The translations under genes were made by a program, and so were the position numbers. The notes under the pieces were generated by a model that did not search any database, was not told the DNA's origin, and saw nothing but the letters and a program-made list of their open reading frames with translations. Source: Eledone cirrhosa (lineage: Eukaryota). Taken from it: a DNA stretch of 64,000 bases. Shown here piece by piece: positions 1,082 to 55,496 of this stretch. Each line of letters starts with the position of its first letter. Within the stretch, counting starts at the first letter, position 1. The stretch is taken from assembly GCA_964016885.1 (NCBI GenBank), contig OZ024764.1, forward strand, positions 26,474,001 to 26,538,000, given 5' to 3'.

Positions 1082-1335
1082 ATGCAAATAGACTTAGACT
1101 GGAAAACATTCAGACAGAGAAGAATGGATAATGAGCGTCGTAAGAGAAATTGGCCAACAATTAATATTAATGGAAATGTAGAAGGATTTCATATTAGTGA
1201 TATGAATGTTTCGTGTGATCACTGTGGAGCTTTGAAATTTAGAAATGAAAATTGTAACTGTTGTAATAAAGGAAAGGTTGTGTTGCCACCATTGCAAATA
1301 TACCCTGAGAGACTGAGAAATCTCTTTGAAAGAGA
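1082..1335 (+). pseudogene. Truncated Helitron RepHel N-terminal Cys-rich segment
   Basis: MNVSCDHCGALKFRNENCNCCNKGKVVLPPLQIYPERLRNLF is the Helitron CxxC...CC..GKV.LP.L motif; it is cut off at the fold-back. Confidence 0.8.
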
Positions 1336-1358
1336 TTTCTCAGTCTCTCAGGGTATAT
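1298..1358. repeat. Perfect 30-bp-arm fold-back palindrome (also ~3879-3939, 18497-18557, 21198-21258)
   Basis: atataccctgagagactgagaaatctcttt-g-aaagagatttctcagtctctcagggtatat; the copy at ~18.5 kb has two mismatches. Confidence 0.95.
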
Positions 1359-2066
1359 ATTCCCGCCGTTGAAATAAAAATTTTAATAGAAAAACGGCGG
1401 GAATATATGTTACAACCCAATCTATATATATTTAGGTTGTAACATATATTCCCGCCGTTGAAATAAAAATTTTAATAGAAAAACGGCGGGAATATATGTT
1501 ACAGCCCAATCTATATATATTTGGGTTTTAACATATATTCCCGCCGTTGAAATAAACATTTTAATAGAAAAACGGCGGGAATATATGTTACAACCCAATC
1601 TACATATATTTGGGTTGTAACATATATTCCCACCGTTGAAATAAAAATTTTAATAGAAAAACGGCGGGAATATATGTTACAACCCAATCTACATATATTT
1701 GGGTTGTAACATATATTCCCGCCGTTGAAATAAAAATTTTAACATAAAAACGGCGGGAATATATATTACAACCCAAACATATATAGGTTGGGTTGTAACA
1801 TATATTCCCGCCGTTTTTCTATTAAAATTTTTATTTCAACGGCGGGAATATATGTTACAACCCCAAAATATGTAGCTTGGATTGTAACATATATTCCCGC
1901 CGTTTTTCTATTAAAATTTTTATTTCAACGGCGGGAATATATGTTACAACTCAAATATATATAGATTGGGTTGTAACATATATTCCCGCCGTTTTTCTAT
2001 TAAAATTTTTATTTCACCGGCAGGAATATGTTACAACCCAAATATATATATATTGAGTTGTAACAT
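1355..2066. repeat. 89-bp alternating-inverted-repeat array, 8 units
   Basis: tcccgccgtt (one copy tcccaccgtt) recurs at 1361, 1450, 1539, 1628, 1717, 1806, 1895, 1984; unit = 28-bp R' + 22-nt loop + 28-bp R + 11-nt loop; 5 units in one loop orientation, then 3 reversed. Confidence 0.95.
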
Positions 2067-2147
2067 GGGTTACATATAAGGTCTCATTTTTTTTCTTTTC
2101 TTTCTTTCAGTTTTCTTCTTATCTCTAGATATAAATATATATACATA

Positions 2148-2256
2148 AGGTAACTTGGTAGAATTGTTAGAACATCAGATAGAATTCTTTGCAGTATTTT
2201 TCCAGTTCTTTACTCTGAGTTCAACTTTACCTTTCTTCCATTCAGTGTCGATAAGT
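2148..2256 (+). mobile_element. Degenerate tRNA-derived SINE fragment (present in each 2.6-kb unit)
   Basis: ttggtagaattgttagaac...ctgagttcaactttacctttcttccattcagtgtcgataag is a decayed plus-strand version of the SINE at 6737-6905 (A-box/B-box remnants). Confidence 0.5.
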
Positions 2257-3662
2257 CTTGAATATGTCTAACGTAGCAATAACTGGAGCTACTTAACCAA
2301 GTTTTCCCAACCTAGTCGATGTCACCTACTGGTTGGCGATTTAAACTGTTGGCTGCGACAATGACCAACTAATCAGTCAGATTCGAACTCACTATGTCTG
2401 GCATATATTTTATATTTTATATTTGAATGAAGTTCTGTAAGTAACCTGGTGGCTTAGATGGCAATACTGCTCGAATAGATGGCTTCTAGTTCATTCCCTA
2501 TCCAGGATTGTAGAATTAATTTTATTTAGTTATTATTTAATCAATTGTTTTAACAAACAAATTATATCTATAAAACGCCAAATATAGTGAGTTCAAATCT
2601 GACTGACATGCATGGTATATATTTATGTTTCATTATACAGCGACACAATACACAGGAACTTATAAAGATATGTATATATTGTCCAGGAGTTTCGAGTTTA
2701 GTGGGAATTGGTACAACTCTCAGTTGGAGCTAGTCCCTGCAAGATCAGCATAAATAATGTTATACCTTTTCATGAAATCTTGCACACCCGATATTTTATA
2801 CATGATTATTTAAAGGTGAACAAAAACCAAAGAACATTGTGCAGCATTCTCAACCTTTCTACCCATGTCGATCTCTTGAAATAGTTTTTATGTCTCAGGG
2901 AAGCCCTGCATAAAATATACTTTTTCTATCTCTAGAGCAGTGGTTCCCAAATCGTGTGCTGAGAGATGAAACAAGATGAGCTGCAAAAGACTAAGATTAA
3001 GTTTTATGATGTGAAAAATATAAAACTGAAATTTCATATAAAAGTTCAAATATAGCTACAGCCACAAACCTAGGCTCCACACCCCGCAATGCAGAGGATA
3101 GTAAGATAGTACCAAGGCCTGACTCACCTCTTCCACTCCATTGAGACCTCTGCCATACTTGGTCCCTGTACTGCTGATTTCCTCCATAAAGTCGGGAGGA
3201 AAGACGACAGGAGCTTCATGAGGAGGGGCGACTATTGTAGCAGGTGTCTCTGGCCTTGCTCTGAGGTAACGCTTTTACGTTTCTTCCACAGGTTGCGGCT
3301 GAGGGACCACTTAGACTGGGGTGAAGTGTCTGTCCCTCCCCCGACTTCTTACTTCTTTTTTTTTTCTCATTTTCATTTTCTTTTCTCTTCTTGCTTATCT
3401 CTGCTATACCACGGCATCAAAAACATATATGATATATGTATGTATGGTATAGGTGTATTTATATTTAGGATAGTTATCAAAGGTAAATAGACTGGTTGGA
3501 GCAATAACAGTCTTGTTTATGTATGTACACACACATATATATATATATATATATATCTGTTTGTTCTTGTATTTCCATAGAAAAGGTAAAGAAAAGAAGA
3601 ATGCTCTATGTATTGTACAGAGCTATTTAATTACATAATAAACAACAGAATATAATTATTCC

Positions 3663-3916
3663 ATGCAAATAGACTTAGACTGGAAAACATTCAGACAGAG
3701 AAGAATGGATAATGAGCGTCGTAAGAGAAATTGGCCAACAATTAATATTAATGGAAATGTAGAAGGATTTCATATTAGTGATATGAATGTTTCGTGTGAT
3801 CACTGTGGAGCTTTGAAATTTAGAAATGAAAATTGTAACTGTTGTAATAAAGGAAAGGTTGTGTTGCCACCATTGCAAATATACCCTGAGAGACTGAGAA
3901 ATCTCTTTGAAAGAGA
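3663..3916 (+). pseudogene. Truncated Helitron RepHel N-terminal segment
   Basis: Same translation as the 1082 copy. Confidence 0.8.
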
Positions 3917-3935
3917 TTTCTCAGTCTCTCAGGGT

Positions 3936-4647
3936 ATATATTCCCGCCGTTGAAATAAAAATTTTAATAGAAAAACGGCGGGAATATATGTTACAACCCA
4001 ATCTATATATATTTAGGTTGTAACATATATTCCCGCCGTTGAAATAAAAATTTTAATAGAAAAACGGCGGGAATATATGTTACAGCCCAATCTATATATA
4101 TTTGGGTTTTAACATATATTCCCGCCGTTGAAATAAACATTTTAATAGAAAAACGGCGGGAATATATGTTACAACCCAATCTACATATATTTGGGTTGTA
4201 ACATATATTCCCGCCGTTGAAATAAAAATTTTAATAGAAAAACGGCGGGAATATATGTTACAACCCAATCTACATATATTTGGGTTGTAACATATATTCC
4301 CGCCGTTGAAATAAAAATTTTAACATAAAAACGGCGGGAATATATATTACAACCCAAACATATATAGGTTGGGTTGTAACATATATTCCCGCCGTTTTTC
4401 TATTAAAATTTTTATTTCAACGGCGGGAATATATGTTACAACCCCAAAATATGTAGCTTGGATTGTAACATATATTTCCGCCGTTTTTCTATTAAAATTT
4501 TTATTTCAACGGCGGGAATATATGTTACAACTCAAATATATATAGATTGGGTTGTAACATATATTCCCGCCGTTTTTCTATTAAAATTTTTATTTCACCG
4601 GCAGGAATATGTTACAACCCAAATATATATATATTGAGTTGTAACAT
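3936..4647. repeat. 89-bp alternating-inverted-repeat array, 8 units
   Basis: Copy of 1355-2066 at offset 2581. Confidence 0.95.
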
Positions 4648-6106
4648 GGGTTACATATAAGGTCTCATTTTTTTTCTTTTCTTTCTTTCAGTTTTCTTCT
4701 TATCTCTAGATATAAATATATATACATAAGGTAACTTGGTAGAATTGTTAGAACATCAGATAGAATTCTTTGCAGTATTTTTCCAGTTCTTTACTCTGAG
4801 TTCAACTTTACCTTTCTTCCATTCAGTGTCGATAAGTCTTGAATATGTCTAACGTAGCAATAACTGGAGCTACTTAACCAAGTTTTCCCAACCTAGTCGA
4901 TGTCACCTACTGGTTGGCGATTTAAACTGTTGGCTGCGACAATGACCAACTAATCAGTCAGATTCGAACTCACTATGTCTGGCATATATTTTATATTTTA
5001 TATTTGAATGAAGTTCTGTAAGTAACCTGGTGGCTTAGATGGCAATACTGCTCGAATAGATGGCTTCTAGTTCATTCCCTATCCAGGATTGTAGAATTAA
5101 TTTTATTTAGTTATTATTTAATCAATTGTTTTAACAAACAAATTATATCTATAAAACGCCAAATATAGTGAGTTCAAATCTGACTGACATGCATGGTATA
5201 TATTTATGTTTCATTATACAGCGACACAATACACAGGAACTTATAAAGATATGTATATATTGTCCAGGAGTTTCGAGTTTAGTGGGAATTGGTACAACTC
5301 TCAGTTGGAGCTAGTCCCTGCAAGATCAGCATAAATAATGTTATACCTTTTCATGAAATCTTGCACACCCGATATTTTATACATGATTATTTAAAGGTGA
5401 ACAAAAACCAAAGAACATTGTGCAGCATTCTCAACCTTTCTACCCATGTCGATCTCTTGAAATAGTTTTTATGTCTCAGGGAAGCCCTGCATAAAATATA
5501 CTTTTTCTATCTCTAGAGCAGTGGTTCCCAAATCGTGTGCTGAGAGATGAAACAAGATGAGCTGCAAAAGACTAAGATTAAGTTTTATGATGTGAAAAAT
5601 ATAAAACTGAAATTTCATATAAAAGTTCAAATATAGCTACAGCCACAAACCTAGGCTCCACACCCCGCAATGCAGAGGATAGTAAGATAGTACCAAGGCC
5701 TGACTCACCTCTTCCACTCCATTGAGACCTCTGCCATACTTGGTCCCTGTACTGCTGATTTCCTCCATAAAGTCGGGAGGAAAGACGACAGGAGCTTCAT
5801 GAGGAGGGGCGACTATTGTAGCAGGTGTCTCTGGCCTTGCTCTGAGGTAACGCTTTTACGTTTCTTCCACAGGTTGCGGCTGAGGGACCACTTAGACTGG
5901 GGTGAAGTGTCTGTCCCTCCCCCGACTTCTTACTTCTTTTTTTTTCTCATTTTCATTTTCTTTTCTCTTCTTGCTTATCTCTGCTATACCACGGCATCAA
6001 AAACATATATGATATATGTATGTATGGTATAGGTGTATTTATATTTAGGATAGTTATCAAAGGTAAATAGACTGGTTGGAGCAATAACAGTCTTGTTTAT
6101 GTATGT

Positions 6107-6151
<45 letters not shown>

Positions 6152-6736
6152 TGTTCTTGTATTTCCATAGAAAAGGTAAAGAAAAGAAGAATGCTCTATG
6201 TATTGTACAGAGCTATTTAATTACATAATAAACAACAGAATATAATTATTCCATGCAAATAGACTTAGAATGGAAAACATTCAGACAGAGAAGAATGGAT
6301 AATGAGCGTCGTAAGAGAAATTGGCCAACAATTAATATTAATGGAAATGTAGAAGAATTTCATATTAGTGATATGAATGTTTCGTGTGATCACTGTGGAG
6401 CTTTGAAATTTAGAAATGAAAATTGTAACTGTTGTAATAAAGGAAAGGTAGTGTTGCCACCATTGCAAATATACCCTGAGAGACTGAGAAATCTCTTTGA
6501 AAGAGGCCAGGAAGCAGTTGATTTCACAGAAACATCTGCAATTAAAACTACATTTATTTCACTTCATTTGGTGTTACCACCCGGCAGAGGCCCGTATAGA
6601 TTTCATATTCAGGGTCAAACATATCAATACACACCCATCTCTGTAACCTGCAGAAAATACACCACAATATGGCCAGTTATATATTATTGATGGGAACGAA
6701 GGTGTGTAGCACAGATTGGAAGTACAACCAAATAAT

Positions 6737-6905: not shown

Positions 6906-7540
6906 AGTCCCAACAAATAATGACTGCTCACCACAAAAAATGGCTATGATAAGAGAGGTGTTGCATGAATATAATCCATATGTCGAAGTGTACAATACAA
7001 TGCATGGCATCACAAATGAATATATATATATATACTACTAAAGTGTATGTAAAATTTTAAAATAAATACTTAAATTCAATTTGTATAATTACACATACAA
7101 TATGTTTTGTTGTAAAACCCTAAATAATGATTTAAGAAATGATGTCAATCTCTTTGTACAGAGAAAAACAATTTATATATATGCATCGTGTGCGCGTGTA
7201 TACTCCATTTAAGACAGCGAAAAACCTAGTACCTCCTTCAAAGAATGCCAAATAGTTTATGCCTAAGGTGTAACACTAATTAAGTTACTGGTATAGATAT
7301 TTCAGTTGAACCCTGCTTCAAACATGCATATTATTATTATATATTTTCAAACACACTTACATACATTATATTTATACACATAGAAATGTTAAAACTAAAG
7401 TATAATGATATAACAACAGTATATAATAGTTTTCTTCACTTTATTGAGATGCAATCGTTTTAAAGAAAAAACATGACAGTATAAGAAATATTTAATATGA
7501 TAACATAATATTTCAGGTAGGATGGTGGTTTCTCTTTGAA

Positions 7541-7716
7541 CTAATAATTGTTTCTACTTTAGGCACAAGGCCAGCAATTAACCAGTACATTACTGGTACT
7601 TTATTTTATCGACCCCGTAAGGATGAAAGGCAAAGTTAACCTCGGATCGTAAAGGGACGTAACTATGCTGGAAAGCATGGCGTCAGACCCTCTACCGATA
7701 CTGCCAATTCACCATA
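7541..7716 (-). mobile_element. Second SINE of the same family (also ~24936-25110, 59642-59816)
   Basis: tactggtactttattttatcgaccccgtaaggatgaaaggcaaagtt...ctctaccgatactgccaa, homologous to 6737-6905. Confidence 0.75.
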
Positions 7717-7917
7717 CAGTATAATTATACAAATATGCATATAGATAGCAATATATATACACTAATATGTATGTACATATTTATACATATATACATATAT
7801 ATAGGGAGAGAGAGAGACACATGTATGTATATATATATACACATGCGTGTATGTATGTGTTTATGTACATTCTTCGGTATATATATATGAGTCACGGTTT
7901 ATTACACATTGGAGATA

Positions 7918-9152
7918 CAGAGAGAAAGAGTTGAAACGAGAGGTGAGAGAGTTGAAACAAGAGAGGAGAGAGTTGAAACGAGAAAAGAGAGAGAGAGTTG
8001 AAACGAGAGGAGAGAGAGAGAGAGTTGTAACGAGAGGAGAGAGAGAGAGAGAGTTGAAACGAGAGGAGAGAGAGTTGAAACGAGGAGAGAGTTGAAACAA
8101 GAGGGTGAGGGGAGAGAGGGGAGAGAGTGATGAAACGAGTCGGAGATAGAGTGTGAAAGAGAGAGAGAGAGGAAGAGAGAGAGAGAGAGGAAGAGAGAGA
8201 GAGAGGAAGAGAGAGAGAGAAAGAGAGAGAGAGAGGAAGAGAGAGAGAGGAAGAGAGAGAGAGGAAGAGGGAGAGGGGGGATGAAACAAGAGGGTGAGGG
8301 ATGAAACAAGAGAGAGAGGGGAGAGAAAGAGAGAGGGGAGAGAAAGAGAGAGGGGAGAGAAAGAGAGAGAGAGAGAGAGAACGAATTGAAACAAGAGAGA
8401 GATGAAACAAGTGAGGGATTAGAGTGTTGAAACAAGAGAGAGAGGAAGAGAGAGAGAGAGCAAGATGGAACGAGAGAGAGAGAGCGAGATGAAATGAGAG
8501 CGAGATGAAACGAGAGAGAGAGAGAGTGAGATGAAATGAGAGAGAGAGAGAGCGAGAGAGAGAGCGAGATGAAACGAGAGAGAGTGAGAGAGAGAGAGAG
8601 AGCGAGATGAAATGAGACAGAGAGAGCGAGATGAAACGAGAGAGAGAGAGAGCGAGATGAAATGAGAGAGTGAGTGCGAGATGAAATGAGAGAGAGTGAG
8701 AGCGACATGAAATGAGAGAGAGAGAGCGAGATGAAACGAGAGAGAGAGAGAGCGAGATGAAATGAGAGAGAGAGAGCGAGATGAAATGAGAGAGAGAGGA
8801 AACGAGACTAGAGAGCGAGATGAAACAGGAGAGAGAGAGCGAGATGAAACAGGAGAGAGAGAGCGAGATGAAACGAGAGGGAGAGAGAGATGAAATGAGA
8901 GAGCGAGAGAGAGATAGAGGGAGATGAAACGACAGAGAGAGAGACAGATGAAACGAGAGAGAGAAATAGAGATGAAACGAGAGAGAGTGATGAAACGAGA
9001 GAGAGGAAGAGAGAGATGGAACGAGAGAGAGGAAGAGAGAGATGGAACGAGAGAGAGGAAGAGAGAGATGGAACGAGAGAGAGGAAGACAGAGATGAAAT
9101 GAGAGAGAGAGAGAGCGAGATGAAACGAGAGAGAGAGAGCGCGAGATGAAAC
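7918..9152 (+). repeat. GA-rich compound minisatellite (core GAGATGAAAC/TGA + (GA)n)
   Basis: Strongly purine-biased strand; irregular ~20-28-bp units. Confidence 0.95.
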
Positions 9153-9495
9153 TCTGTCATGTAATGTTATGGACATATCTGCCCCTGGGGCTAATAATTG
9201 TCATGTAATGTTATGGTCATCTCTGCCCCTGTGGTTAATAATTCTGTCATGTAATGTTATGGTCATGTCTGCACCTGTGGCTAATAAATCTGTCATGTAA
9301 TGTTATGGTCATCTCTGCCCCTGTGGCTAATAATTCTGTCATGTAATGTTATGGACATCTCTGCCCCTGTGGCTAATAATTCTGACATGTAATGTTATGG
9401 ACATCTCTGCCCCGGTGGCTAATAATTCTGACATGTAATGTTATGGACATCTCTGCCCCTGTGGCTAATAATTCTGACATGTAATGTTATGGACA
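9153..9495 (+). repeat. 46-bp satellite, ~7 copies
   Basis: catgtaatgttatggacatctctgcccctgtggctaataattctga unit. Confidence 0.95.
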
Positions 9496-11105
9496 TTGCT
9501 ATCTTGTTTCATCTCAAACAGCAAAGTGCAAGAAGAGAAAATTGTCGTGTACAGAACTGTGAATTAAGATTTAGAAGAGGATCAGATATGAGCTGCTCTA
9601 ATTTACCAACTAGTAATGATAGCTGTTGTTTTGTGGGGGATTGAGGGCACACCACCTGTACAAAGAGATATTATCATCTTTCCTAAAGACCATCCTCCTC
9701 AGAAAATACCACATAATGCATGCCACTTGGACCTCATGACCGACCGATAATGGTGAATTTTGGTGGCATAGTGCCATGGAGAGGAATGTAGGACCTGTGT
9801 TTGCAATAGACTGACAATGCAGGAGTATTACATATACTGTATAGCATATAGAGGAGGATTTAGTGCGATATATAGGGCAGGTAAATTATTTTAGCAGTAT
9901 TTAGTGGATGCCTATATGAAAGTAGAGGGATGCAGGCTTCAATATTTGAGGAACAATCAAGCCCAATTGTGAGTGGATGAGTATAATGGTTTAATGAATT
10001 ATCTAAACAGATGATAACACTGAGCCTTAAAAAATGAAGACAAGATAAGAAACAGAGAAGACATTGACAGAATCGTGTCAGCAGAAATACCTGCATTGGA
10101 AGATGATCCAGTACTACATGAGCAGGTTTAAAAGTTTATGATCCACAGGCCATGTGGTTCTGGAAACCCTTTTCCCCCATTTATACAAAATGGATTTTTC
10201 AAAAAGAACTATCCAAAAACCTACAGAAGGGAAACATTATTGAACCTAAATGGATACCCAGAGTACAGGAGGTGCAAGACAGGAACTGCAGTGTAAATTG
10301 GATGACATTCAGTAGATAACAGGAATGTTATGCCATTTAATGCCTTTTTGATTAAGAAATATTGTGCACATATTAATGTTGAAGTTTGCGCTTCTGTAAA
10401 AAGTGTCAAGTACCTCTTTAAATATGTTACATGGGGCATGATTGTACATCTATAGAAGTAACGAATAATGCATTACCTAATGAGGCTCAGAACCAACACA
10501 ACCATGATGAAATAAGAACCTATCTTTGTTGCAGGTATGTGTCTCAGCCAGAAGCAGTGTCGTGTCTCTCGGAATTTAAGCTTCATGGTACATCACATAC
10601 AGTATACAGCCTAGCCACACACCTGGAGAACAAACAGAGTTTACTTTCAAAGAGGCAATGCTCAGGTTGTGGTAGAAATGCAGGGACCCTTGCTGCCTGG
10701 TTCAAGCTAAATGAACTTGCTTACACCTTCTGGGATGCCGCCTCACTAACTCCAATTATAAGCAGGATCAATAATAATGCTTCTATGGAATATTTCAATC
10801 CAGAACAGATTATGTAATGGCACAAGATTAGAAGTAGTAGAACTGCATAAACATTTTATCAAAGCTTCTCATATCTATGGTCCTTTGATGGGCAGGTGTG
10901 TTTTGATCCCAAGACTGAAGTTATCCCCCAGTGGTGCCAACATCCCTTTTACTTTGGAAAGACCCCAGTTTCCATTAAGACTGTCATATGCCATGACAAT
11001 CAACAAGAACCATGGTCAAATACATGATAAAGTGGGTCTGTTCCTCCCTGAGCAAGTATTTAACCCTGGACAATTGTATGTTGCTTTTTCAAGAGTTCAC
11101 AGACA

Positions 11106-11447
11106 GATGTAAAAATTAATCCTAGCAAACCCCCACCACTCCTACAACTGTTAGCTGTTAGCCCACCCCCAGCACCACCCAACCTCCGTTCTAGTCCCAC
11201 CGTTAGAACCAATGCTGCTTACCCTGCCTCTTTTACTAGTTCACTCCGTCGCTCGAATTTCAAAGCTGGCCCTCTACACTTGGTCGTTGCCAGCTCACCA
11301 CCTGGTTGTGCTCTCTGTGTCCGCACTAGCCGGTACCTAAACACAATAAAATGTCACCTGTGCTACCAAAACTACCACAGGAACTCTGTCGGCATCAGCA
11401 AGGCTCAAGCCGAAAGGCTTCAATACTAGACCTGTAATCAGGGCCAC
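11106..11447 (+). pseudogene. Pro/Ser-rich linker plus degenerate PHD-like zinc finger directly after the helicase (also ~50878-51219, 63705-64000)
   Basis: Stop-free frame from DVKINP... to CALC-x11-CHLC-x4-H-RN(S/C)VGISKAQAERLQY*TC; the copy at ~63.98 kb reads HRNCVG. Confidence 0.5.
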
Positions 11448-11681
11448 TTTACCTCCGACGACCAGCTTTCTACCGAGTGTGTGTTGATGGAGGGGACATG
11501 AGACCAGCAAAGTCCTAGGAGTAGAGACTAGTAAATAATAAACGGTCCTAGCTATGTTAAGAATATATATAAGAAAAATGTTCTATACATTTAAGAAGAC
11601 AAGAGAAATAAATATTTACCTCTTTCATGTAGGTAATATAGCGGTGTTATAAAAGTATAACTGATGCAGGTAGTTTGTTTC

Positions 11682-11939
11682 AAACTATAACACATATAAC
11701 TCTATCAGTGAAGCCCTTTAGTATAGGTCAACTGGGAAACTATAACACATATAACCCTATCAGTGAAGCCCTCTGGGAAACTATAACACATATAACTCTA
11801 TCAGTGAAGCCCTTTAGTATAGGTCAACTGGGAAACTATAACACATATAACCCTATCAGTGAAGTCCTTTAGTATAGGTCAACTGGGAAATTATAACACA
11901 TATAACCCTATCAGTGAAGTCCTTTAGTATAGGTCAACT
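11682..11939 (+). repeat. 55-bp tandem repeat, ~5 units
   Basis: aactataacacatataaccctatcagtgaagtcctttagtataggtcaactggga; one 41-bp deleted unit. Confidence 0.95.
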
Positions 11940-11989
11940 AACAGAAGTATTACGGGTATGGAAAAAATTCTAAATAAGCCTACAACAGT

Positions 11990-12059
11990 CATTGCGGGCC
12001 ACTCTGACTGGTCAGGTGGGCTCGATTGTGGCCCGCGGGCCGCCTGTTGCACGCCCCTC
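11990..12059 (+). mobile_element. hAT-type MITE 3' terminal fragment (also ~52150-52219)
   Basis: ggcccgcgggccgcctgttgcacgcccctc followed by ctttagac; GGCCCGCGGGCC subterminal motif is typical of hAT MITEs. Confidence 0.5.
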
Positions 12060-12091
12060 CTTTAGACAGAATATCTATCACTGTTAAGTAA

Positions 12092-12290
12092 TACTGTGAT
12101 CTGTCGGCTAACTACATTTTCCAGCCTGTGGCGTTTGGGGGAGTCGGGATACTGACTGCGAGATTCCTATCTTCACTGGCGGCTAGCCTGACGAAGGTGA
12201 CTGGTGAAGCTCGTGAGGGCACTTGGTTGTTCCAGCTCCTCAGCCTCGCCATCGCCCGAGGTAACGCTGCAGACGTGCTGGCTTGCCTAA
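12092..12290 (+). pseudogene. CRE-like RLE C-terminal remnant, second lineage (also ~52252-52449)
   Basis: YCDLSANYIFQPVAFGGVGILTARFLSSLAASLTKVTGEAREGTWLFQLLSLAIARGNAADVLACL. Confidence 0.7.
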
Positions 12291-12384
12291 AAAATCATTA
12301 GAGAGGTTTCCCAGTGCTCCTCGCGATACTGTTATCTTTTGCTCTAGTAGCAGCTCGTTTGTCCACCCCTTTCGCCTGCCTTTG

Positions 12385-12570
12385 GTTGTATGTCGTCCTA
12401 GATGTGTGTATTACCTGCTTGTGTGTTGTATGTGGTCCTAGATGTGTGCATTACCTGCTTATGTGGTCCTAGATGTATGTATTACCTGCTGGTGTGTTGT
12501 ATGTGGTCCCAGATGTGTGGATTACCTGTTTTTGTGTTGTATGTGGTCCCAAATGTGTGTGCTACCCGCT
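12385..12570 (+). repeat. ~40-bp tandem repeat, 4-5 units (also ~52545-52725)
   Basis: tgtggtcctagatgtgtgtattacctgcttgtgtgttgta with a shorter variant. Confidence 0.85.
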
Positions 12571-13277
12571 TCTGTGATTTGTTGTTTCTTCTTTCTCTCT
12601 TCCGAGAAACAATCCTGTATTTTTTTAATCTATTCCATGCGTTAAGTAATTAGCAGCAACAACAAACTGATTTTCAGTTGTAAAAAGAATCTTTAAACCT
12701 TCACCATTTACATTAACACATACCATACGTTGTCCCAGCCACAAATAAACAGTAAAAAAAACTTACTTTGCGGTTAAATTCTTCACAATTAAAAGAAAAA
12801 TATTTCTAACACGTTTCTAGACAACACCAAGTTTACACCTTCAATATCCGGTAAAAGTAAAAACAAATTCTGGAGACATTTAACGAAACGAAACTATGTA
12901 AAGAAAAACGAAAATTAAACGAAGACAAATAGTAAATTTTAATTTTTATTAAATAAAATACCAGTAATTCACTGCAGTAGATTTAATCAACTTTACTCTC
13001 TCTGCACGAAAGAAGAAAAAAATTCCTGACTTAGTGCTTAATATATAGAGAGGGGGAGAGTTTGGTGTTACTTCATATAGAGAGGGGTATTGGAAGAGAG
13101 TGCCGTGTAGTAGATATAGAGAGGGAGAGAGTGTGTGCTAATTGATATAAAGAGGGGGATTTGCACACCCCTCCCGCCTAGAAAAATTCTGAAATGCTTC
13201 GACCTCCCTGTACATATATATATATATATAGTATACACACACAGACATATATATAGTAAATAAATGTGTGTGTGTAT

Positions 13278-13462
13278 CAGTGGTCCCCAAACTTTTCTGT
13301 TCCACACGCCTCCTCTAAAATATGTTTATGTTCCCCTTTAATATAAAAACAATCCGAGTATTCTGAAAGTATTATTACTGTAATATAAAGTAGAAACCCT
13401 TTATTTAAACAAAGCTACGATGCAGCGATGATCAAAACAAACTTCTCGTAGGTGCTGCCAAG
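13278..13462 (+). mobile_element. hAT-type MITE 5' part
   Basis: Starts CAGTGGTCCCCAAAC; body homologous to 54386-54600 and to the fold-back arms at 14839/16044. Confidence 0.6.
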
Positions 13463-13979
13463 CGGGGAAAAGTGGATGTATAATGATGATGATATATATA
13501 TATATGCCCCACCCTTGCAAACAGGGAAAAGCAGACGTAAAATGAAAATGATGATATATATATAGATAGATAGATATGTATATATATATATTTATACTTA
13601 TACGTCATGGTGGCTACAGGTGCCAAGAGGAAGAAGCCGGTCAAATCCTCTGATATTTGTTTATCTTCCTTTCCTTTGTATATATATATATAGTATGTGT
13701 GTGTGTATGAAGATGTATGACCCCTAGCAAGCCAAACTACAGTTACTCCCCGACATGGAGAGCAAATTAAAACATTACCTGTTAGAGACGAACGTGAAAT
13801 GATTTGTTAGTGAACTACCGGTGTCACAGTAATTATGTTACCGGTGTAACTATTTCTGTTTACCTTATTTTTAAATGACACTCCTATATTAGTTTAGTGA
13901 CCTTTCAATTCAAATAAATTCTTGATGATGATTGAACTCGCATCGGAGTAGCCCAACGCCTTGGCCTCCGCGTGTGTGA

Positions 13980-14335
13980 GCCACATAAATGCTCTCAACG
14001 ACATAGTGAGAAGAAGCCTGGACGCAGCTGAATTTCCATCTCAACTGGAGTCAGCAGGCTTAGGCCGCGGAGATGGCAAGCACCCCGAGGGAATCACCCT
14101 CTTCCCATTCGAAGGAGGTAGATCCACAAACCCCAGCATCGCTGCCCGTCTCGCAGATGAACATAAAATAAACAAATTCCGGTGTTTGTCCTGGAGCCTC
14201 TTCTAAGCACCAGCCGCCGTCGAGACCCCGGGCCAACTTGGACCCATTACAGCCGAGCTCCTCCGCAACATCGCAGTGTCTGTGGCCCGTCTGAGGATGG
14301 AGTCCCACGAGGTTGGATGCCTGTTGCAGCAGGTG
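13980..14335 (+). pseudogene. CRE-like restriction-like endonuclease remnant, third lineage
   Basis: HINALNDIVRRSLDAAEFPSQLESAGLGRGDGKHPEGITLFPFEGGR (cf. DGKRPDG PD..D motif); same frame continues past one stop as APAAVETPGQLGPITAELLRNIA...LLQQV. Confidence 0.75.
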
Positions 14336-14462
14336 TTACTGTCCTTACATATATATACGTAAATGTTCCCTTGACTGCTATTTCTAGCATATATTAATAG
14401 ACACTTTAGAAACAGCAGCTAAAAATCAAGAAACAACAGTGTGTGTCTGTATATATATACAC

Positions 14463-14531
<69 letters not shown>

Positions 14532-14616
14532 GAGAGCAGCCAAAGACACGCACACACGAACATACACATACACACAGGTGTATGTCTGCGTGTATGTATA
14601 TATATGTGTGTGTCTT

Positions 14617-14706
<90 letters not shown>
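14463..14706. repeat. (GA)n, (TC)n and (TA)n microsatellites
   Basis: Long pure dinucleotide runs. Confidence 0.95.
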
Positions 14707-14710
<4 letters not shown>

Positions 14711-14838
14711 GTCAGTGATCCCCCTCGCAACCTTTAATTAAACAAACCTGCGATGATCAAAATAAACACCAAAGTATAAACAAACAGCCCATAGGTGCTG
14801 CCGGATACACGATAACATGTGTAGACGAAGTAAAACTT

Positions 14839-16044
14839 TTATTACTGTAATATAAAGTAGAAACCCTTTATTTAAACAAAGCTGCGATGCAGCGATGATC
14901 AAAACAAACTTCAAATAACATGTGTATACGAAGTGTATCTGGAAGCTTGGTCGTATTATATGACTTTCAAATTGACCCCTATTATATTCAAATTATCCCC
15001 TGTGGGGCGTGCACCCCACGTTGAGAATCCCTCATAAATAAATATATGTGAGTGTGTTGCTATGACTGCTATTTCTAGCAGGTTTACTGCAGTCCTGTAG
15101 ACGCACAACAAAAACCGGAAGTGGCAGCCATTAAAAAACTTTGGCTTAAAATCAGGCAAAAGTTTTTTAACAATTTGCCAAGAAAGATAACTCTTGTCTT
15201 ACTTAATCGCAAAAATCGAGGCAAAAATTTTGTGGGTGTACAGTTTGTTTGGTGTATTTGACTGCTATTTCTAGCATGTATGGACACTTTAGAAATAGCA
15301 GCGAAAAACGGAAAACAGCAGAAAGAAGGACACACACCTATATATATATATATACCAGCTATACACTCACCCATACATATATATATATACCAGCTATACA
15401 CACACCCATATCTACGTATAGGTGTGTGTGCGCGCGTGTATGTATATATAAATATATATATTTAAATGTATATATCTGTGCATATATATATGTATATATA
15501 TATACGTGTGTGTCCTTCTTTCTTATGTTTCCCGTGTTTCGCTGCTATTTCTAAAGTGTCCATATATGCTAGAAATAGCAGTCAAATACACCAAACAAAC
15601 TGCACACCCGCAACATTTTTTGCCTCGATTTTTGCGATTAAGTAAGACAAGAGTTATCTTTCTTGGCAAATTGTTAAAAAACTTTTGCCTGATTTTAAGC
15701 CAAAGTTTTTTAATGGCTTCCACTTCCGGTTTTTGTTGTGCGTCTACAGGACTGCAGTAAACCTGCTAGAAATAGCAGTCATAGCAACACACTCACATAT
15801 ATTTATTTATGAGGGATTCTCAACGTGGGGTGCACGCCCCACAGGGGATAATTTGAATATAATAGGGGTCAATTTGAAAGTCATATAATACGACCCAACT
15901 CCCTGTTACACTTCGTATACACATGTTATCGTGTATCTGGCAGCACCTGCGAGAAGTTTGTTTACATTTTGGGGTTTGCTTTGATGATCGCTGCATCTCA
16001 GCTTTGTTTAAATAAAGGGTTTCTACTTTATATTACAGTAATAA
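14839..16044. repeat. Fold-back structure: ~500-bp inverted arms around a ~170-bp TA-rich spacer
   Basis: Identical spurious ORF on both strands apart from one residue (14956-15159 minus, 15685-15888 plus); arms include a hAT-MITE end (gttgagaatccct). Confidence 0.9.
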
Positions 16045-18117
16045 CACTTTTACAAGACTCGGATTGTTTTTATATTAAAGGGGGACATGTTTTTTAAACT
16101 CTGAACTCAGCATCTTTCTGTTGTTCTCCGGGATTCTAGCAAAGTATAAAAAAAAATATATATATATAGATATATATATATATATCTGGCAGTCAACCTC
16201 AGACTCGAAAAAGCCGCCGCTAATCGTGATCGTTGGGGTTATAATTCGACTAAAGTGCTTCCACTGGGCACCATTAGCTGGTTGTGATCATTGGAGAATT
16301 CTTTCTGCGCTGAAAGAGCCTAGGACTAAAAGATATATATATAGATGTCGAAACGGCAGTAGCACAGCCGTTGGGGTCCTGAATATTTTCACATCTATAT
16401 ATGTGTGTGTATTCTGCGACATTTATAATTACATAAGCAAGCATATTTGAATAACAAAATTTGAGGTTTAAATACTTTATTTTTTACCAATAACATAGAG
16501 AAAGGCATGAACAACACCACATGTTAATTACTTTAATATTGAAAGTAGGCTTATAAATATTAAAAAAGCAGATGTTTGTATCTTTCATGGTGGTCTGGTG
16601 GGTGATACCAGAGATGGTGGTAGTCATGGTTTCGGTTTCAATCCTGGTCATGGGTTACATATAAGGTCTCATTTTTCTTTCTTTCAGTTTTCTTCTTATC
16701 TCTAGATATAAATATATATACATAAGGTAATTTGGTAGAATTGTTAGAACATCAGATAGAATTCTTTGCAGTATTTTTCCAGTTCTTTACTCTGAGTTCA
16801 ACTTTACCTTTCTTCCATTCGGTGTCGATAAGTCTTGAATATGTCTAACGTAGCAATAACTGGAGCTACTTAACCAAGTTTTCCCAACCTAGTCGATGTC
16901 ACCTACTGGTTGGCGATTTAAACTGTTGGCTGGGACAATGACCAACTAATCAGTCAGATTCCAACTCACTATGTCTGGCATATATTTTATATTTTATATT
17001 TGAATGAAGTTCTGTAAGTAACCTGGTGGCTTAGATGGCAATACTGCTCGAATAGATGGCTTCTATTATGAAGTTATAAGTTCATTCCCTATCCAGGATT
17101 GTAGAATTAATTTTATTTAGTTATTATTTAATCAATTGTTTTAACAAACAAATTATATCTATAAAACGCCAAATATAGTGAGTTCAAATCTGACTGACAT
17201 GCATGGTATATATTTATGTTTCATTATACAGCGACACAATACACAGGAACTTATAAAGATATGTATATATTGTCCAGGAGTTTCGAGTTTAGTGGGAATT
17301 GGTACAACTCTCAATTGGAGCTAGTCCCTGCAAGATCAGCATAAATAATGTTATACCTTTTCATGAAATCTTGCACACCCGATATTTTATACATGATTAT
17401 TTAAAGGTGAACAAAAACCAAAGAACATTGTGCAGCATTTCTCAACCTTTCTACCCATGTCGATCTCTTGAAATAGTTTTTATGTCTCAGGGAAGCCCTG
17501 CATAAAATATACTTTTTCTATCTCTAGAGCAGTGGTTCCCAAATCGTGTGCTGCGAGATGAAACAAGATGAGCTGCAAAAGACTAAGATTAAGTTTTAAG
17601 ATGTGAAAAATATAAAACTGAAATTTCATATAAAAGTTCAAATATAGCTACAGCCACAAACCTAGGCTCCACACCCCGCAATGCAGAGGATAGTAAGATA
17701 GTACCAAGGCCTGACTCACCTCTTCCACTCCATTGAGACCTCTGCCATACTTGGTCCCTGTACTGCTGATTTCCTCCATAAAGTCGGGAGGAAAGACAAC
17801 AGGAGCCTCATGAGGAGGGGCAACTATTGTAGCAGGTGTCTCTGGCCTTGTTCCGAGGTAACGCTTTTACGTTTCTTCCACAGGTTGCGGCTGAGGGACC
17901 ACTTAGACTGGGGTGAAGTGTCTGTCCCTCCCCCGACTTCTTACTTCTTTTTTTTTCTCATTTTCATTTTCTTTTCTCTTCTTGCTTATCTCTGCTATAC
18001 CACGGCATCAAAAACATATATAATATGTGTATGTATGGTATAGGTGTATTTATATTTAGGATAGTTATCAAAGGTAAATAGACTGGTTGGAGCAATAACA
18101 GTCTTGTTTATGTATAT

Positions 18118-18281: not shown

Positions 18282-18535
18282 ATGCAAATAGACTTAGACT
18301 GGAAAACATTCAGACAGAGAAGAATGGATAATGAGCGTCGTAAGAGAAATTGCCAACAATTAATATTAATGGAAATGTAGAAGAATTTCATATTAGTGAT
18401 ATGAATGTTTCGTGTGATCACTGTGGAGCTTTGAAATTTAGAAATGAAAATTGTAACTGTTGTAATAAAGGAAAGGTTATGTTGCCACCATTGCAAATAT
18501 ACCCTGGGAGACTGAGAAATCTCTTTGAAAGAGAT
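18282..18535 (+). pseudogene. Truncated Helitron N-terminal segment (frameshifted)
   Basis: CDHC...CCNKGKV motif in ORF 18350-18571. Confidence 0.75.
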
Positions 18536-18552
18536 TTCTCAGTCTCTCAGGG

Positions 18553-19354
18553 CATATATTCCCGCCGGTGAAATAAAAATTTTAATAGAAAAACGGCGGG
18601 AATATATGTTACAACCCAACCTACATATTTTTGGGTTGTAACATATATTCCCGCCGTTGAAATAAATATTTTAATAGAAAAACGGCGGGAATATATGTTA
18701 CAACCCAATCTATATATATTTGAGTTGTAACATATATTCCCGCCGTTGAAATAAAAATTTTAATAGAAAAACGGCGGGAATATATGTTACAACGCAATCT
18801 ATATATATTTGGGTTGTAACATATATTCCCGCCGTTGAAATAAAAATTTTAATAGAAAAACGGCGGGAATATATGTTACAACCCAACCTATATATGTTTG
18901 GGTTGTAATATATATTCCCGCCGTTTTTCTGTTAAAATTTTTATTTCAACGGCGGGAATATATGTTACAACCCAAATATATGTAGATTGGGTTGTAACAT
19001 ATATTCCCGCCGTTTTTCTATTAAAATTTTTATTTCGACGGCGGGAATATATGTTACAACCCAAATATATATAGATTGCGTTGTAACATATATTCCCGCC
19101 GTTTTTCTATTAAAATTTTTATTTCAACGGCGGGAATATATGTTACAACCCAAATATATGTAGATTGGATTGTAACATATATTCCCGCCGTTTTTCTATT
19201 AAAATTTTTATTTCAACGGCGGGAATATATGTTACAACTCAAATATATATAGATTGGGTTGTAACATTTATTCCCGCCGTTTTTCTATTAAAATTTTTAT
19301 TTCACCGGCGGGAATATGTTACAACCCAAATATATATATATTGAGTTGTAACAT
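18553..19354. repeat. 89-bp alternating-inverted-repeat array, 9 units (4+5)
   Basis: Unit starts at 18560, 18649, 18738, 18827, 18916, 19005, 19094, 19183, 19272. Confidence 0.95.
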
Positions 19355-20982: not shown

Positions 20983-21236
20983 ATGCAAATAGACTTAGAC
21001 TGGAAAACATTCAGACAGAGAAGAATGGATAATGAGCGTCGTAAGAGAAATTGCCAACAATTAATATTAATGGAAATGTAGAAGGATTTCATATTAGTGA
21101 TATGAATGTTTCGTGTGATCACTGTGGAGCTTTGAAATTTAGAAATGAAAATTGTAACTGTTGTAATAAAGGAAAGGTTATGTTGCCACCATTGCAAATA
21201 TACCCTGAGAGACTGAGAAATCTCTTTGAAAGAGAT
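20983..21236 (+). pseudogene. Truncated Helitron N-terminal segment (frameshifted)
   Basis: CDHC...CCNKGKV motif in ORF 21051-21272. Confidence 0.75.
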
Positions 21237-21254
21237 TTCTCAGTCTCTCAGGGT

Positions 21255-22055
21255 ATATATTCCCGCCGGTGAAATAAAAATTTTAATAGAAAAACGGCGG
21301 GAATATATGTTACAACCCAACCTACATATTTTTGGGCTGTAACATATATTCCCGCCGTTGAAATAAATATTTTAATAGAAAAACGGCGGGAATATATGTT
21401 ACAACCCAATCTATATATATTTGAGTTGTAACATATATTCCCGCCGTTGAAATAAAAATTTTAATAGAAAAACGGCGGGAATATATGTTACAACGCAATC
21501 TATATATATTTGGGTTGTAACATATATTCCCGCCGTTGAAATAAAAATTTTAATAGAAAAACGGCGGGAATATATGTTACAACCCAACCTACATATGTTT
21601 GGGTTGTAATATATATTCCCGCCGTTTTTCTGTTAAAATTTTTATTTCAACGGCGGGAATATATGTTACAACCCAAATATATTTAGATTGGGTTGTAACA
21701 TATATTCCCGCCGTTTTTCTATTAAAATTTTTATTTCGACGGCGGGAATATATGTTACAACCCAAATATATATAGATTGCGTTGTAACATATATTCCCGC
21801 CGTTTTTCTATTAAAATTTTTATTTCAACGGCGGGAATATATGTTACAACCCAAATATATGTACATTGGATTGTAACATATATTCCCGCCGTTTTTCTAT
21901 TCAAATTTTTATTTCAACGGCGGGAATATATGTTACAACTCAAATATATATAGATTGGGTTGTAACATATATTCCCGCCGTTTTTCTATTAAAATTTTTA
22001 TTTCACCGGCGGGAATATGTTACAACCCAAATATATATATATTGAGTTGTAACAT
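21255..22055. repeat. 89-bp alternating-inverted-repeat array, 9 units (4+5)
   Basis: Copy of 18553-19354 at offset 2701. Confidence 0.95.
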
Positions 22056-23641
22056 GGGTTACATATAAGGTCTCATTTTTTTTCTTTTCTTTCTTTCAGT
22101 TTTCTTCTTATCTCTAGATATAAATATATATACATGAGGTAACTTGGTAGAATTGTTAGAACATCAGATAGAATTCTTTGCAGTATTTTTCCAGTTCTTT
22201 ACTCTGAGTTCAACTTTACCTTTCTTCCATTCAGTGTCGATAAGTCTTGAATATGTCTAACGTAGCAATAACTGGAGCTACTTAACCAAGTTTTCCCAAC
22301 CTAGTCGATGTCACCTACTGGTTGGCGATTTAAACTGTTGGCTGGGACAATGACCAACTAATCAGTCAGATTCGAACTCACTATGTCTGGCATATATTTT
22401 ATATTTTATATTTGAATGAAGTTCTGTAAGTAACCTGGTGGCTTAGATGGCAATACTGCTCGAATAGATGGCTTCTATTATGCAGTTATAAGTTCATTCC
22501 CTATCCAGGATTGTAGAATTAATTTTATTTAGTTATTATTTAATCAATTGTTTTAACAAACAAATTATATCTATAAAACGCCAAATATAGTGAGTTCAAA
22601 TCTGACTGACATGCATGGTATATATTTATGTTTCATTATACAGCGACACAATACACAGGAACTTATAAAGATATGTATATATTGTCCAGGAGTTTCGAGT
22701 TTAGTGGGAATTGGTACAACTCTCAATTGGAGCTAGTCCCTGCAAGATCAGCATAAATAATGTTATACCTTTTCATGAAATCTTGCACACCCGATATTTT
22801 ATACATGATTATTTAAAGGTGAACAAAAACCAAAGAACATTGTGCAGCATTTCTCAACCTTTCTACCCATGTCGATCTCTTGAAATAGTTTTTATGTCTC
22901 AGGGAAGCCCTGCATAAAATATACTTTTTCTATCTCTAGAGCAGTGGTTCCCGAATCGTGTGCTGCGAGATGAAACAAGATGAGCTGCAAAAGACTAAGA
23001 TTAAGTTTTATGATGTGAAAAATGTAAAGCTGAAATTTCATATAAAAGTTCAAATATAGCTACAGCCACAAACCTAGGCTCCACACCCCGCAATGCAGAG
23101 GATAGTAAGATAGTACCAAGGCCTGACTCACCTCTTCCACTCCATTGAGACCTCTGCCATACTTGGTCCCTGTACTGCTGATTTCCTCCATAAAGTCGGG
23201 AGGAAAGATGACAGGAGCCTCATGAGGAGGGGCGACTATTGTAGCAGGTGTCTCTGGCCTTGCTCCGAGGTAACGCTTTTACGTTTCTTCCACAGGTTGC
23301 GGCTGAGGGACCACTTAGACTGGGGTGAAGTGTCTGTCCCTCCCCCGACTTCTTACTTCTTTTTTTTTCTCCTTTTCATTTTCTTTTCTCTTCTTGCTTA
23401 TCTCTGCTATACCACGGCATCAAAAACATATATGATATATGTATGTATGGTATAGGTGTATTTATATTTAGGATAGTTATCAAAGGTAAATAGACTGGTT
23501 GGAGCAATAACAGTCTTGTTTATGTATATACATATATATATATATATATATGTTTGTTCTTGTATTTCCATAGAAAAGGTAAAGAAAAGAAGAGTGCTCT
23601 ATGTATTGTACAGAGCTATTTAATTACATAATAAACAACAG

Positions 23642-24385
23642 AATGGAAAACATTCAGACAGAGAAGAATGGATAATGAGCGTTGTAAGAGAAATTGGCCA
23701 ACAATTAATATTAATGGAAATGTAGAAGAATTTCATATTAGTGATATGAATGTTTCGTGTGATCACTGTGGAGCTTTGAAATTTAGAAATGAAAATTGTA
23801 ACTGTTGTAATAAAGGAAAGGTTGTGTTGCCACCATTGCAAATATACCCTGAGAGACTGAGAAATCTCTTTGAAAGAGGCCAGGAAGCAGTTGATTTCAC
23901 AGAAACATCTGCAATTAAAACTACATTTATTTCACTTCATTTGGTGTTACCACCCGGCAGAGGCCCGTATAGCTTTCATATTCAGGGTCAAACATATCAC
24001 TACACCCCCATCTCTGTAACCTGCAGAAAATACACCACAATATGGCCAGTTATATATTATTGATGGGAACGAAGGTATGTAGCACAGATTGGAAGTACGT
24101 CCAAATAATTGTTTCTAGCACAAGGCCAGCAATTACTGGTACTTTATTCTATCGACCTAATAAGGATGAAAACAAAGTCAACCTTGGAGGGATTTGAACC
24201 CAGAACGTAAAGGGACATAACCCTATGCTGTAAAGCATGGTGTCTGGCGCTCTACCGATACTGCCAATCCACTGCCCTAGTACCAACAAATAATGACTGC
24301 TCACCACAAAAAATGGCTATGATAAGAGAGGTGTTGCATGAATATAATCCATATGTCGAAGTGTACAATACAATGCATGGCATCA
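23642..24385 (+). mobile_element. Helitron RepHel 5' portion (copy C); its 3' part never resumes
   Basis: ORF 23668-24063 homologous to 6253-6690, then SINE, then the insert starting at 24386. Confidence 0.85.
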
Positions 24386-37300: not shown

Positions 37301-38558
37301 GAGCGAGATCAAACGAGAGAGAGAGAGCGAGATGAAATGAGAGAGTGAGAGCGAGATGAAACGAGAGAGAGAGAGCGAGATGAAATGAGAGAGAGAGAGC
37401 GAGATGAAATGAGAGAGAGAGAGCGAGATGAAACGAGACAGAGAGAGCGAGGTGAAACGAGAGAGAGAGAGAGCGAAATGAAACGAGACAGATTAGAGCG
37501 AGATGAAACGAGAGAGAGAGAGCAAGATGAAATGAGAGAGAGAGAGCGAGATGAAACGAGAGAGTGAGAGCTAGAGGAAACGATAGAGAGAGGAAACGAG
37601 AGAGAGAGGAAACGAGAGAGAGGATACGAGAGAGAGGAAACGAGAGTAGAGAGCGAGATGAAACAGGAGAGAGAGAGCGAGATGAAACAGGAGAGAGAGA
37701 GCGAGATGAAACGAGAGGGAGAGTGAGATGAAACGAGAGAGCGAGAGAGAGATAGAGGGAGATGAAACGACAGAGAGAGAGACAGATGAAACGAGGGAGA
37801 TAGAGATGAAACGAGAGTGAGTGATGAAACGAGAGAGAGGAAGAGAGAGATGGAACGAGAGAGAGGAAGAGAGAGATGGAACGAGAGAGAGGAAGACAGA
37901 GATGAAACGAGAGAGAGAGAGAGCGAGATGAAACGAGAGAGAGGAAGAGAGAGAACGCGAGATGAAACGAGAGAGAGAGCAAGATGAAACGAGAGAGAGG
38001 AAGAGAGATAGCGCAAGATGAAACGAGAGAGAGAGAGCGCGAGATGGAAGTCTGTCATGTAATGTTATGGACATATCTGCCCTTGGGGCTAATAATTGTC
38101 ATGTAATGTTATGGAAATCTCTGCCCCTGTGGCTAATAATTCTGTCATGTAATGTTATGGACATCTCTGCCCCTGTGGCTAATAATTCTGTCATGTAATG
38201 TTATGGACATCTCTGCCCCTGTGGCTAATAAATCTGTCATGTAATGTTATGGACATCTCTGCCCCTGTGGCTAATAATTCTGACATGTAATGTTATGGAC
38301 ATCTCTGCCCCTGTGGCTAATAAATATGACATGTAATGTTATGGACATCTCTGCCCCTGTGGCTAATAAATCTGTCATGTAATGTTATGGACATCTCTGC
38401 CCCTGTGGCTAATAATTCTGACATGTAATGTTATGGACATCTCTGCCCCTGTGGCTAATAAATCTGTCATGTAATGTTATGGACATCTCTGCCCCTGTGG
38501 CTAATAATTCTGACATGTAATGTTATGGACATCTCTGCCCCTGTGGCTAATAATTCTG
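25310..38558 (+). repeat. Left arm: alternating GA-minisatellite and 46-bp satellite blocks (8 GA blocks)
   Basis: GA blocks start at ~25310, 27010, 29086, 30228, 32381, 33913, 35152, 37210, each followed by a 46-bp array. Confidence 0.95.
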
Positions 38559-53314: not shown

Positions 53315-53667
53315 ATATTCAAATTATCCCCTGTGGGGCGTGCACCCCACGTTGAGAATACCTCATAAATAAATATATGTGAGTGTGTTTCTATGACTGC
53401 TATTTCTAGCAGGTTTACTGCAGTCCTGTAGACGCACAACAAAAACCGGAAGTGGCAGCCATTAAAAAACTTTGGCTTAAAATCAGGCAAAAGTTTTTTA
53501 ACAATTTGCCAAGAAAGATAACTCTTGTCTTACTTAATCGCAAAAATCGAGGCAAAAATTTTGCGGGTGTGCAGTTTGTTTGGTGTATTTGACTGCTATT
53601 TCTAGCATGTATGGACACTTTAGAAATAGCAGCGAAAAACGGAAAACAGCAGAAAGAAGGACACACA

Positions 53668-53701
<34 letters not shown>

Positions 53702-54360: not shown

Positions 54361-54385
54361 AATAAAAACGATGATTCGTTGTCTT

Positions 54386-55436: not shown

Positions 55437-55496
<60 letters not shown>

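Follow-up and report, generated by a model that had tools for sequence, protein, structure and literature searches.

A Fold-Back Palindrome Marking a Tandem-Duplication Seam within a Decayed Helitron Remnant of Eledone cirrhosa

Near the start of the 64,000-nucleotide stretch of Eledone cirrhosa DNA analyzed here (contig OZ024764.1; hereafter the window), a Helitron-like coding sequence turns back on itself and gives way to an 89-bp tandem array, which raises the question of how such a junction was made and whether the Helitron had any part in making it. An earlier note had proposed that the Helitron was truncated at a native mini-hairpin and extended by self-primed fold-back, and that the site recorded the initiating step of the rearrangement.

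The palindrome and the duplication seam

The junction is a perfect palindrome of 61 bases at 1298 to 1358, with 30-bp arms (1298 to 1327 and 1329 to 1358) around a 1-nt center, G1328. By arm pairing, the left arm, which is native Helitron sequence on the forward strand, is the putative template of the fold-back. The right arm is composite: its first 6 nt are native, the next 20 (1335 to 1354, reverse strand) belong to the fold-back only and are the exact reverse complement of 1302 to 1321, and the last 4 (1355 to 1358) are common to the fold-back and the array, making 24 of its 30 bases (1335 to 1358) non-native. The center of the palindrome is also the center of a native 6-bp inverted repeat (1322 to 1334) built around the same G1328; this repeat folds as a 5-bp stem with a 3-nt loop and is the priming microhomology of junction 1. 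Chance does not account for it: dinucleotide shuffling of the 2.3-kb unrearranged reference (200 replicates) never gave an arm longer than 12 bp, versus the 30 observed, and the folding z score of the 61-mer was -12.5.

A search with an 18-mer ending in the mini-hairpin found eight copies of this site in the window, all on the forward strand, and all eight were examined. Four carry the fold-back palindrome, and the other four continue as Helitron. Arm pairing is 30/30 at centers 1328, 3909 (3879 to 3939), and 21228 (21198 to 21258) and 28/30 at center 18527 (18497 to 18557), where two private, asymmetric substitutions are present at 18507 and 18553. The exact reverse-complement continuation that had been described, with 30-bp arms and a 1-nt loop, is thereby confirmed in three copies, and the insert is the reverse complement of the adjoining sequence at 24 of 24 nt in these and in 22 of 24 pairs in the fourth. 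In the read-through copies (centers 6499, 23872, 48776, and 58568), pairing stops after 6 bp, and the native inverted primer repeat is present in all four; the stretch from 6488 to 6511 indeed reads GAAATCTCTTTGAAAGAGGCCAGG and includes the small hairpin.

The palindrome sits at the seam of a tandem duplication of about 1.85 kb inside the Helitron remnant. The seam consists of a fold-back of 20 to 24 nt and an array insert of 0.7 to 0.8 kb, with non-native bases totaling 729 or 818, and the layout can be written as flank-[U-fold-back-array]n-U-Helitron continuation, where U is the duplicated unit; n is 2 at 16649, 0 at 56751, and at least 2 at the window start. After the array, sequence restarts at the same base of U in four of four arrays, and U has a different, non-array left flank in two places, at 16649 and 56751. 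On the forward strand, U terminates at the mini-hairpin at 2064 to 3915 and is followed by native Helitron continuation at 4645 to 6505 (mini-hairpin, 6493 to 6505) and at 22053 to 23878 (mini-hairpin, 23866 to 23878). A single, unrearranged U at 56751 to 58574, also on the forward strand, retains its native left flank and runs on into native Helitron sequence; it serves as the pre-event reference. No Helitron sequence was lost at the duplication; the Helitron continues in the downstream copy, and the proposed truncation at the hairpin is not borne out, the site being a tandem-duplication seam.

Each of the three junctions has an overlap: 6 nt at junction 1, 4 nt (ATAT, 1355 to 1358) between fold-back and array at junction 2, and 3 nt (CAT, 2064 to 2066, forward strand) between the array end and the start of U at junction 3. 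The second overlap had been reported as TATAT; an overlap does exist, but against the array consensus it is only ATAT, because the base before ATAT at internal unit ends is C in 55 of 59 cases and T in 4 of 59. An overlap of at least 6 nt at junction 1 arose in 0.31% of 67,580 simulated random fold-back junctions, and only 2 of 2,260 centers in the reference have arms of at least 6 bp around a 1-nt center. The chance of an overlap of at least 4 nt at junction 2 is 2.8% and that of at least 3 nt at junction 3 is about 7% (null taken from junction 2); these two junctions are weak evidence. The start of U also seems to resemble the array stem except for a 3-nt gap.

By eye, the boundary between the flank and U resembled a tRNA, and this resemblance prompted a test with ARAGORN. 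Default settings returned no genes in the window. With -ps90, the single match in the window was a tRNA-like cloverleaf on the forward strand at 16584 to 16655, a possible pseudogene detected at the relaxed threshold only; it straddles 16649, the native left edge of U, and in its acceptor stem bases of the flank are paired with those that open U. Shuffled sequence gave 14 matches in 1.16 Mb at this setting (0.012 per kb). A sister match at 56686 to 56757 appeared at -ps80 only, where shuffles give 0.46 per kb, and an Rfam search of 56550 to 56900, around the 56751 boundary, returned no tRNA and eight sub-threshold chance matches. Since the only -ps90 match in the window spans the boundary, versus 0.012 per kb in shuffles, flank-U-Helitron is probably the ancestral arrangement, with moderate evidence for flank-U as the earlier state and for the array junction interrupting the tRNA-like sequence; the negative outcomes at default ARAGORN settings and in Rfam count against this marker of polarity. 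At both positions the 3' end of the cloverleaf, which may be a pseudogene or a SINE head, is the duplication re-entry point.

The same set of three junctions recurs at each of the four palindromes. Divergence among U copies is 0.2 to 1.6% (copy at 48353 excluded), the arms differ by 0 to 2 bases, and the flanks of the four junction copies differ by about 1%. The C at 18553, which would abolish the second microhomology, is private to the copy centered at 18527; the sister copy at 21228 has T at the equivalent position, though the two share variants on either side of the junction, and T is by parsimony the likely ancestral state. Because all four share one junction, they appear to be the product of one event that was amplified later, which leaves no sample of independent truncations, and the suggested clustering of truncations at the hairpin did not emerge among the eight copies in the window. 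The small differences among U copies and arms suggest that the event was recent relative to Helitron decay. Copy number would later have grown by unequal exchange between U copies and by duplication of a larger block.

The Helitron remnant, the array, and the wider window

Of 78 candidates, a single homolog matched the frame that runs through the site: P0001 (1530 aa, E 5e-30), a protein with Helitron_like_N (PF14214) and PIF1 (PF05970) domains, and it is through this single homolog that the Helitron is identified. The decayed Rep/helicase coding remnant at 1112 to 1334 (forward strand), an N-terminal Cys-rich stretch, matches P0001 residues 148 to 223 (tblastn, 60% identity, E 3e-20) and ends in this copy at the junction, which maps to about residue 223. 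Collinear remnants cover 732 of the 1530 residues, in order, at 38 to 77% identity by tblastn. Residues 1 to 147 have no match in the window remnants, and residues 513 to 632 and 868 to 1366 are missing from every window copy (tblastn); an RGLPHCH motif within residues 513 to 632 is presumably the Rep HUH motif. A Pfam search of nine window fragments gave a sole match, to Pif1_2B_dom, in one of the nine. The longest uninterrupted remnant, at 48560 to 50878 (forward strand; mini-hairpin, 48770 to 48782), contains stops, frameshifts, and two large internal deletions. In the alignments, eight stop positions are common to all three long copies, some of them where the aligner ran through a frameshift, and these shared stops suggest that the Helitron was dead before the copies, which differ from each other by 0.9 to 2.4%, diverged. 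With no HUH region and little of the helicase left, its autonomy appears to have been lost. Copies that had been called intact are intact at the mini-hairpin site, but all are decayed, with no HUH region and little helicase.

The Helitron copies in the window are segmental duplicates, not separate insertions, because the duplicated unit starts inside the tRNA-like sequence and the flanks are shared. In long copies other than that at 48560, at least about 2.5 kb of inserted sequence is present (7013 to 9513), consisting of an AG microsatellite, a 46-bp satellite, and other sequence, versus an uninterrupted 49286/49287 in the 48560 copy. Being uninterrupted where the others carry this insert, and 2 to 3% diverged, the 48560 copy would be older or a different paralog.

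Canonical Helitrons (HLE1) begin with TC after an A and end in a hairpin about 11 nt before CTRR, ahead of a T. A scan for a Helitron 3' end (hairpin-CTRR) found no match in 11106 to 16648 and one weak match in 50878 to 56750. The mini-hairpin is 13 nt long and mid-coding, with no CTRR in the 55 nt after it, versus the 19-bp palindrome 11 nt before CTAG given as the terminator of Helraiser (PMC4778049); Helitron termini are also described in PMC11417382. The mini-hairpin is thus not a Helitron terminator. The Helitron remnant would be a passive, incidental substrate, and the link to Helitron biology drawn in the earlier note falls away, as the seam lies in a dead remnant.

The 89-bp array occurs in the window only at the four seams, at 1355 to 2066 (8 units), 3936 to 4647, 18554 to 19354 (9 units), and 21255 to 22055 (9 units); the first and second copies differ at 2 of 711 positions and the third and fourth at 6 of 800. 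Its unit is a dumbbell, with one 28-bp stem in both orientations and loops of 22 and 11 nt. Loop orientation flips mid-array, 4 to 5 units running one way and 3 to 5 the other, and the array has the long inverted arms of tandem subrepeats that are a trait of type-2 foldback elements. Units diverge from the consensus by 2.4 to 3.0% when terminal units are excluded (2.9% in arrays 1 and 2), and several unit variants are common to all four arrays; because unit divergence exceeds that of U and these variants are common to all arrays, we favor the view that the array is an older repeat captured from elsewhere. No donor or monomer template was found in the masked window beyond AT runs (six motifs, blastn-short, nhmmer), and the unit had no match in plasmids or phages. 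The earlier note had allowed that the inverted bases might be native to the array's parent element; this seems unlikely, because 20 of them are the exact reverse complement of adjacent Helitron coding sequence.

Some unit variants recur in mirror image across the two array halves, and the dumbbell unit looks like the arms of a foldback element or a rolling-circle product that has been doubled. The array center is inverted between arrays 1/2 and 3/4 (the 1575 to 1811 region versus the 18863 to 19010 region) with end orientation kept, as would be expected from postevent exchange between inverted arms.

The whole window is made up of a large block, starting near 16649 and 56751, that is present two to three times and has expanded internally, and it is therefore a segmental or macro-tandem repeat. 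A second fold-back, of about 10 kb, lies in the 46-bp satellite/AG block with its center at 38557 (38514 to 38600) and its inverted block extending to about 48352; it has a 1-nt center, 58 of the first 60 pairs match, there is a 2-nt overlap between two unit variants, and GC skew reverses there. At 48353 the inverted block meets U again partway along the unit, through another 2-nt overlap. Two MITE-like elements of about 1 kb (14915 to 15929 and 53315 to 54252) each agree to about 90% with their own reverse complement, with partial copies at 54444 to 56188, and a 55-bp/41-bp tandem array (11682 to 11939 and 51457 to 52099) differs in copy number between two paralogous blocks.

Routes to the junction

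That the fold-back arose by U-turn synthesis, intramolecular or inter-strand, we regard as very likely: the palindrome center coincides with that of the native repeat, an overlap of at least 6 nt being expected by chance in about 0.3% of junctions, which supports a templated U-turn. In the explanation that we prefer, a break or a collapsed fork presumably left a 3' end free at the native inverted repeat of 6 bp; this end would pair with the adjacent repeat, fold back on its own strand, be extended by 20 to 24 nt on its own template, and then be released. The extended end would anneal to the 89-bp array via ATAT and re-enter 1.85 kb upstream, at the start of U, via CAT, with the array probably captured from outside the window in the same event. 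This whole course, snap-back at the native repeat in a single event that also joined the array and re-entered U, seems to us somewhat better than an even proposition. Intramolecular priming would be the likeliest form of the U-turn, and both forms give the same sequence. The enzyme would be of the Pol theta type (end joining) or the Pol delta type (MMBIR synthesis), between which the sequence does not discriminate; Pol theta-linked tandem duplications are described in PMC7368036 and PMC13031629. For microhomology-mediated end joining of the synthesis-dependent kind (SD-MMEJ), a 5- to 6-bp stem with a 1- to 3-nt loop would be atypical, because in the Drosophila data of PMC9303309 90% of insertion primers are 3 nt or shorter and the preferred loop is 6 nt.

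The strongest rival, which we consider a lesser but real possibility, is an inter-strand template switch at a fork or D-loop, in which the nascent end would anneal to the opposite parental strand through the 6 bp of the native repeat. Such a switch yields an identical sequence, according to PMC10766183, and it would use all 6 bp and need no 1- to 3-nt loop. The native hairpin is indeed weak: its folding energy of -2.3 kcal/mol (z -0.33) is marginal, since 61 of 200 shuffles matched it, and the 36-nt strand ending at it has an unfolded centroid and, as its MFE structure, a different hairpin. However, the inverted repeats used in ODIRA mostly span 40 to 80 bp including the spacer, versus 13 bp here (PMC10766183), and directly abutting repeats are the substrate of small-loop single-stranded DNA hairpins, which act as fold-back primers (PMC7467729). 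The switch could have run from left to right or in mirror image, beginning at the start of U, crossing the array and then 30 nt of Helitron, and making the U-turn as its final step; as set out in PMC7954356, mirror cases are indistinguishable without the direction of replication. Because the mirror reading gives the same junctions and places the U-turn last, the claim that the site records the initiating step is not supported. What survives of the snap-back proposal is a templated U-turn at the native repeat; its intramolecular route is not separable from the inter-strand one.

It is improbable, in our estimate, that the junction was built in two steps, the fold-back arm first joining U via a shared GGGT and the array being inserted later at the palindrome base with duplication of GGGT; the U-turn itself would be the same as in our preferred explanation. 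GGGT does stand on either side of the array in three of four copies (1351 to 1354 and 2067 to 2070 at array 1), and in its build the array recalls the inverted arms, made of tandem subrepeats, of the type-2 foldback elements described in PMC5499845. Given boundary ambiguity, however, 10.9% of 20,000 random trials produce an apparent duplication of at least 4 nt, and GGGT is not significant. The ATAT and CAT overlaps would both have to be coincidental, an array-less fold-back was seen in none of the four copies, and the terminal inverted repeat at the array ends is just AT.

We give similarly little credence to a variant in which fold-back and dumbbell array were polymerized in one run of repeated hairpin-primed synthesis, a new palindromic satellite being born at the repair junction. 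The lack of any shared arm mismatch is compatible with the unit divergence of 2.4 to 3.0%, but birth in place is disfavored because the window holds no monomer template and unit variants are common to all four arrays. Were it true, the locus would record nested U-turns at three scales (the 30-bp arms, the 89-bp dumbbell, and the ~10-kb inversion at 38557), and only if the array was born in the same event would the importance of the site be greater.

Still harder to sustain is a flank hairpin that a transposase of the hAT, MULE, or Transib type would have made and that was opened off-center to leave palindromic nucleotides beside a foldback-like element. Such enzymes do hairpin the flank (PMC5499845). 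The array also resembles foldback arms. Some ends in the window may be hAT-like, which would count in favor of this route. The coincidence with the native 6-bp repeat would, however, be chance (0.3%), and there is no element at the site in the four read-through copies. A Muta1-type hairpin (43 + 43 nt) has no center base and a hAT-type hairpin has the complement of the native base at its center, whereas the base observed is the native top-strand G, which largely refutes this explanation.

Helitron rolling-circle transposition that terminated at the mini-hairpin, with the released strand folding back, is barely credible. Helraiser does truncate prematurely when its terminator is lost (PMC4778049), but the mini-hairpin is, as set out above, 13 nt long, mid-coding, and not followed by CTRR within 55 nt, and the long copies share stops, are without the HUH region, and, by their shared flanks, are segmental duplicates. 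A library or assembly artifact is no more credible: fold-back chimeric reads are a known sequencing artifact, but the same junction stands in four copies with flanks about 1% apart, the array comes in two versions (8 and 9 units, center inverted), and one copy has two private asymmetric arm substitutions.

Comparison with known systems

Like the canonical Helitron HLE1 (PMC11417382, PMC4778049), the remnant is collinear with a Helitron_like_N and PIF1 protein; unlike it, the remnant has no terminal hairpin-CTRR that we could find, is deleted for the HUH region and the bulk of the helicase, and carries shared stops. A Helitron-specific precedent (truncation, hairpin, fold-back) was not found in a search of an open-access library, which is not proof of absence. 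As a single event, the junction cannot decide between mechanisms or inform Helitron biology, and so it opens no long-standing question.

Closer parallels come from DNA repair. Snap-back SD-MMEJ, as presented in PMC5728401 and PMC9303309, likewise starts from inverted primer repeats at an end and proceeds by short self-templated synthesis; a new microhomology then anneals to another end, and the product is a longer inverted repeat (PMC5728401). Here the primer is longer (5 to 6 bp) and the loop shorter (1 to 3 nt) than preferred in that system, the partner is a 0.7- to 0.8-kb array, and the outcome is a 1.85-kb duplication, not simple rejoining; the present case is also natural and heritable, not nuclease induced. 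The local foldback inversions at double-strand breaks in yeast reported in PMC11724301 are templated inverted duplications of 5 to 34 bp, compared with 20 to 24 nt here, and they too are primed by inverted microhomology, with a capture microhomology of 0 to 5 bp (4 here). The yeast system differs in its 10-bp imperfect repeat, its 41-nt loop, and its rejoining to the other break end, whereas the repeats here abut and a further insert and a duplication follow (PMC11724301).

In the four-point model of short-range template switching (PMC7954356), a reverse-complement fragment likewise generates a perfect inverted repeat, and our junction, with its return point ahead of its departure point, corresponds to its "4 before 1" pattern, but the return here is 1.85 kb upstream via a nonlocal array, beyond the short range of that model. 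The complex junctions attributed to FoSTeS/MMBIR in PMC5120786 share with it serial microhomology switches and, at a copy-gain junction, a short, nearby templated insert together with an insert of several hundred bases; the scale here is much smaller, and the product was later amplified as a tandem unit. The junction is thus another instance of a well-described class of repair scar, made by an ordinary mechanism and not by new biology. Its interest is as a clean, polarized case, arisen in nature, in which a short templated inversion lies at the seam of a duplication and copies from before and after the event stand side by side. It suggests that the snap-back or template-switch chemistry known from induced breaks can have heritable outcomes as well and can give rise to a new 2.6-kb tandem unit.
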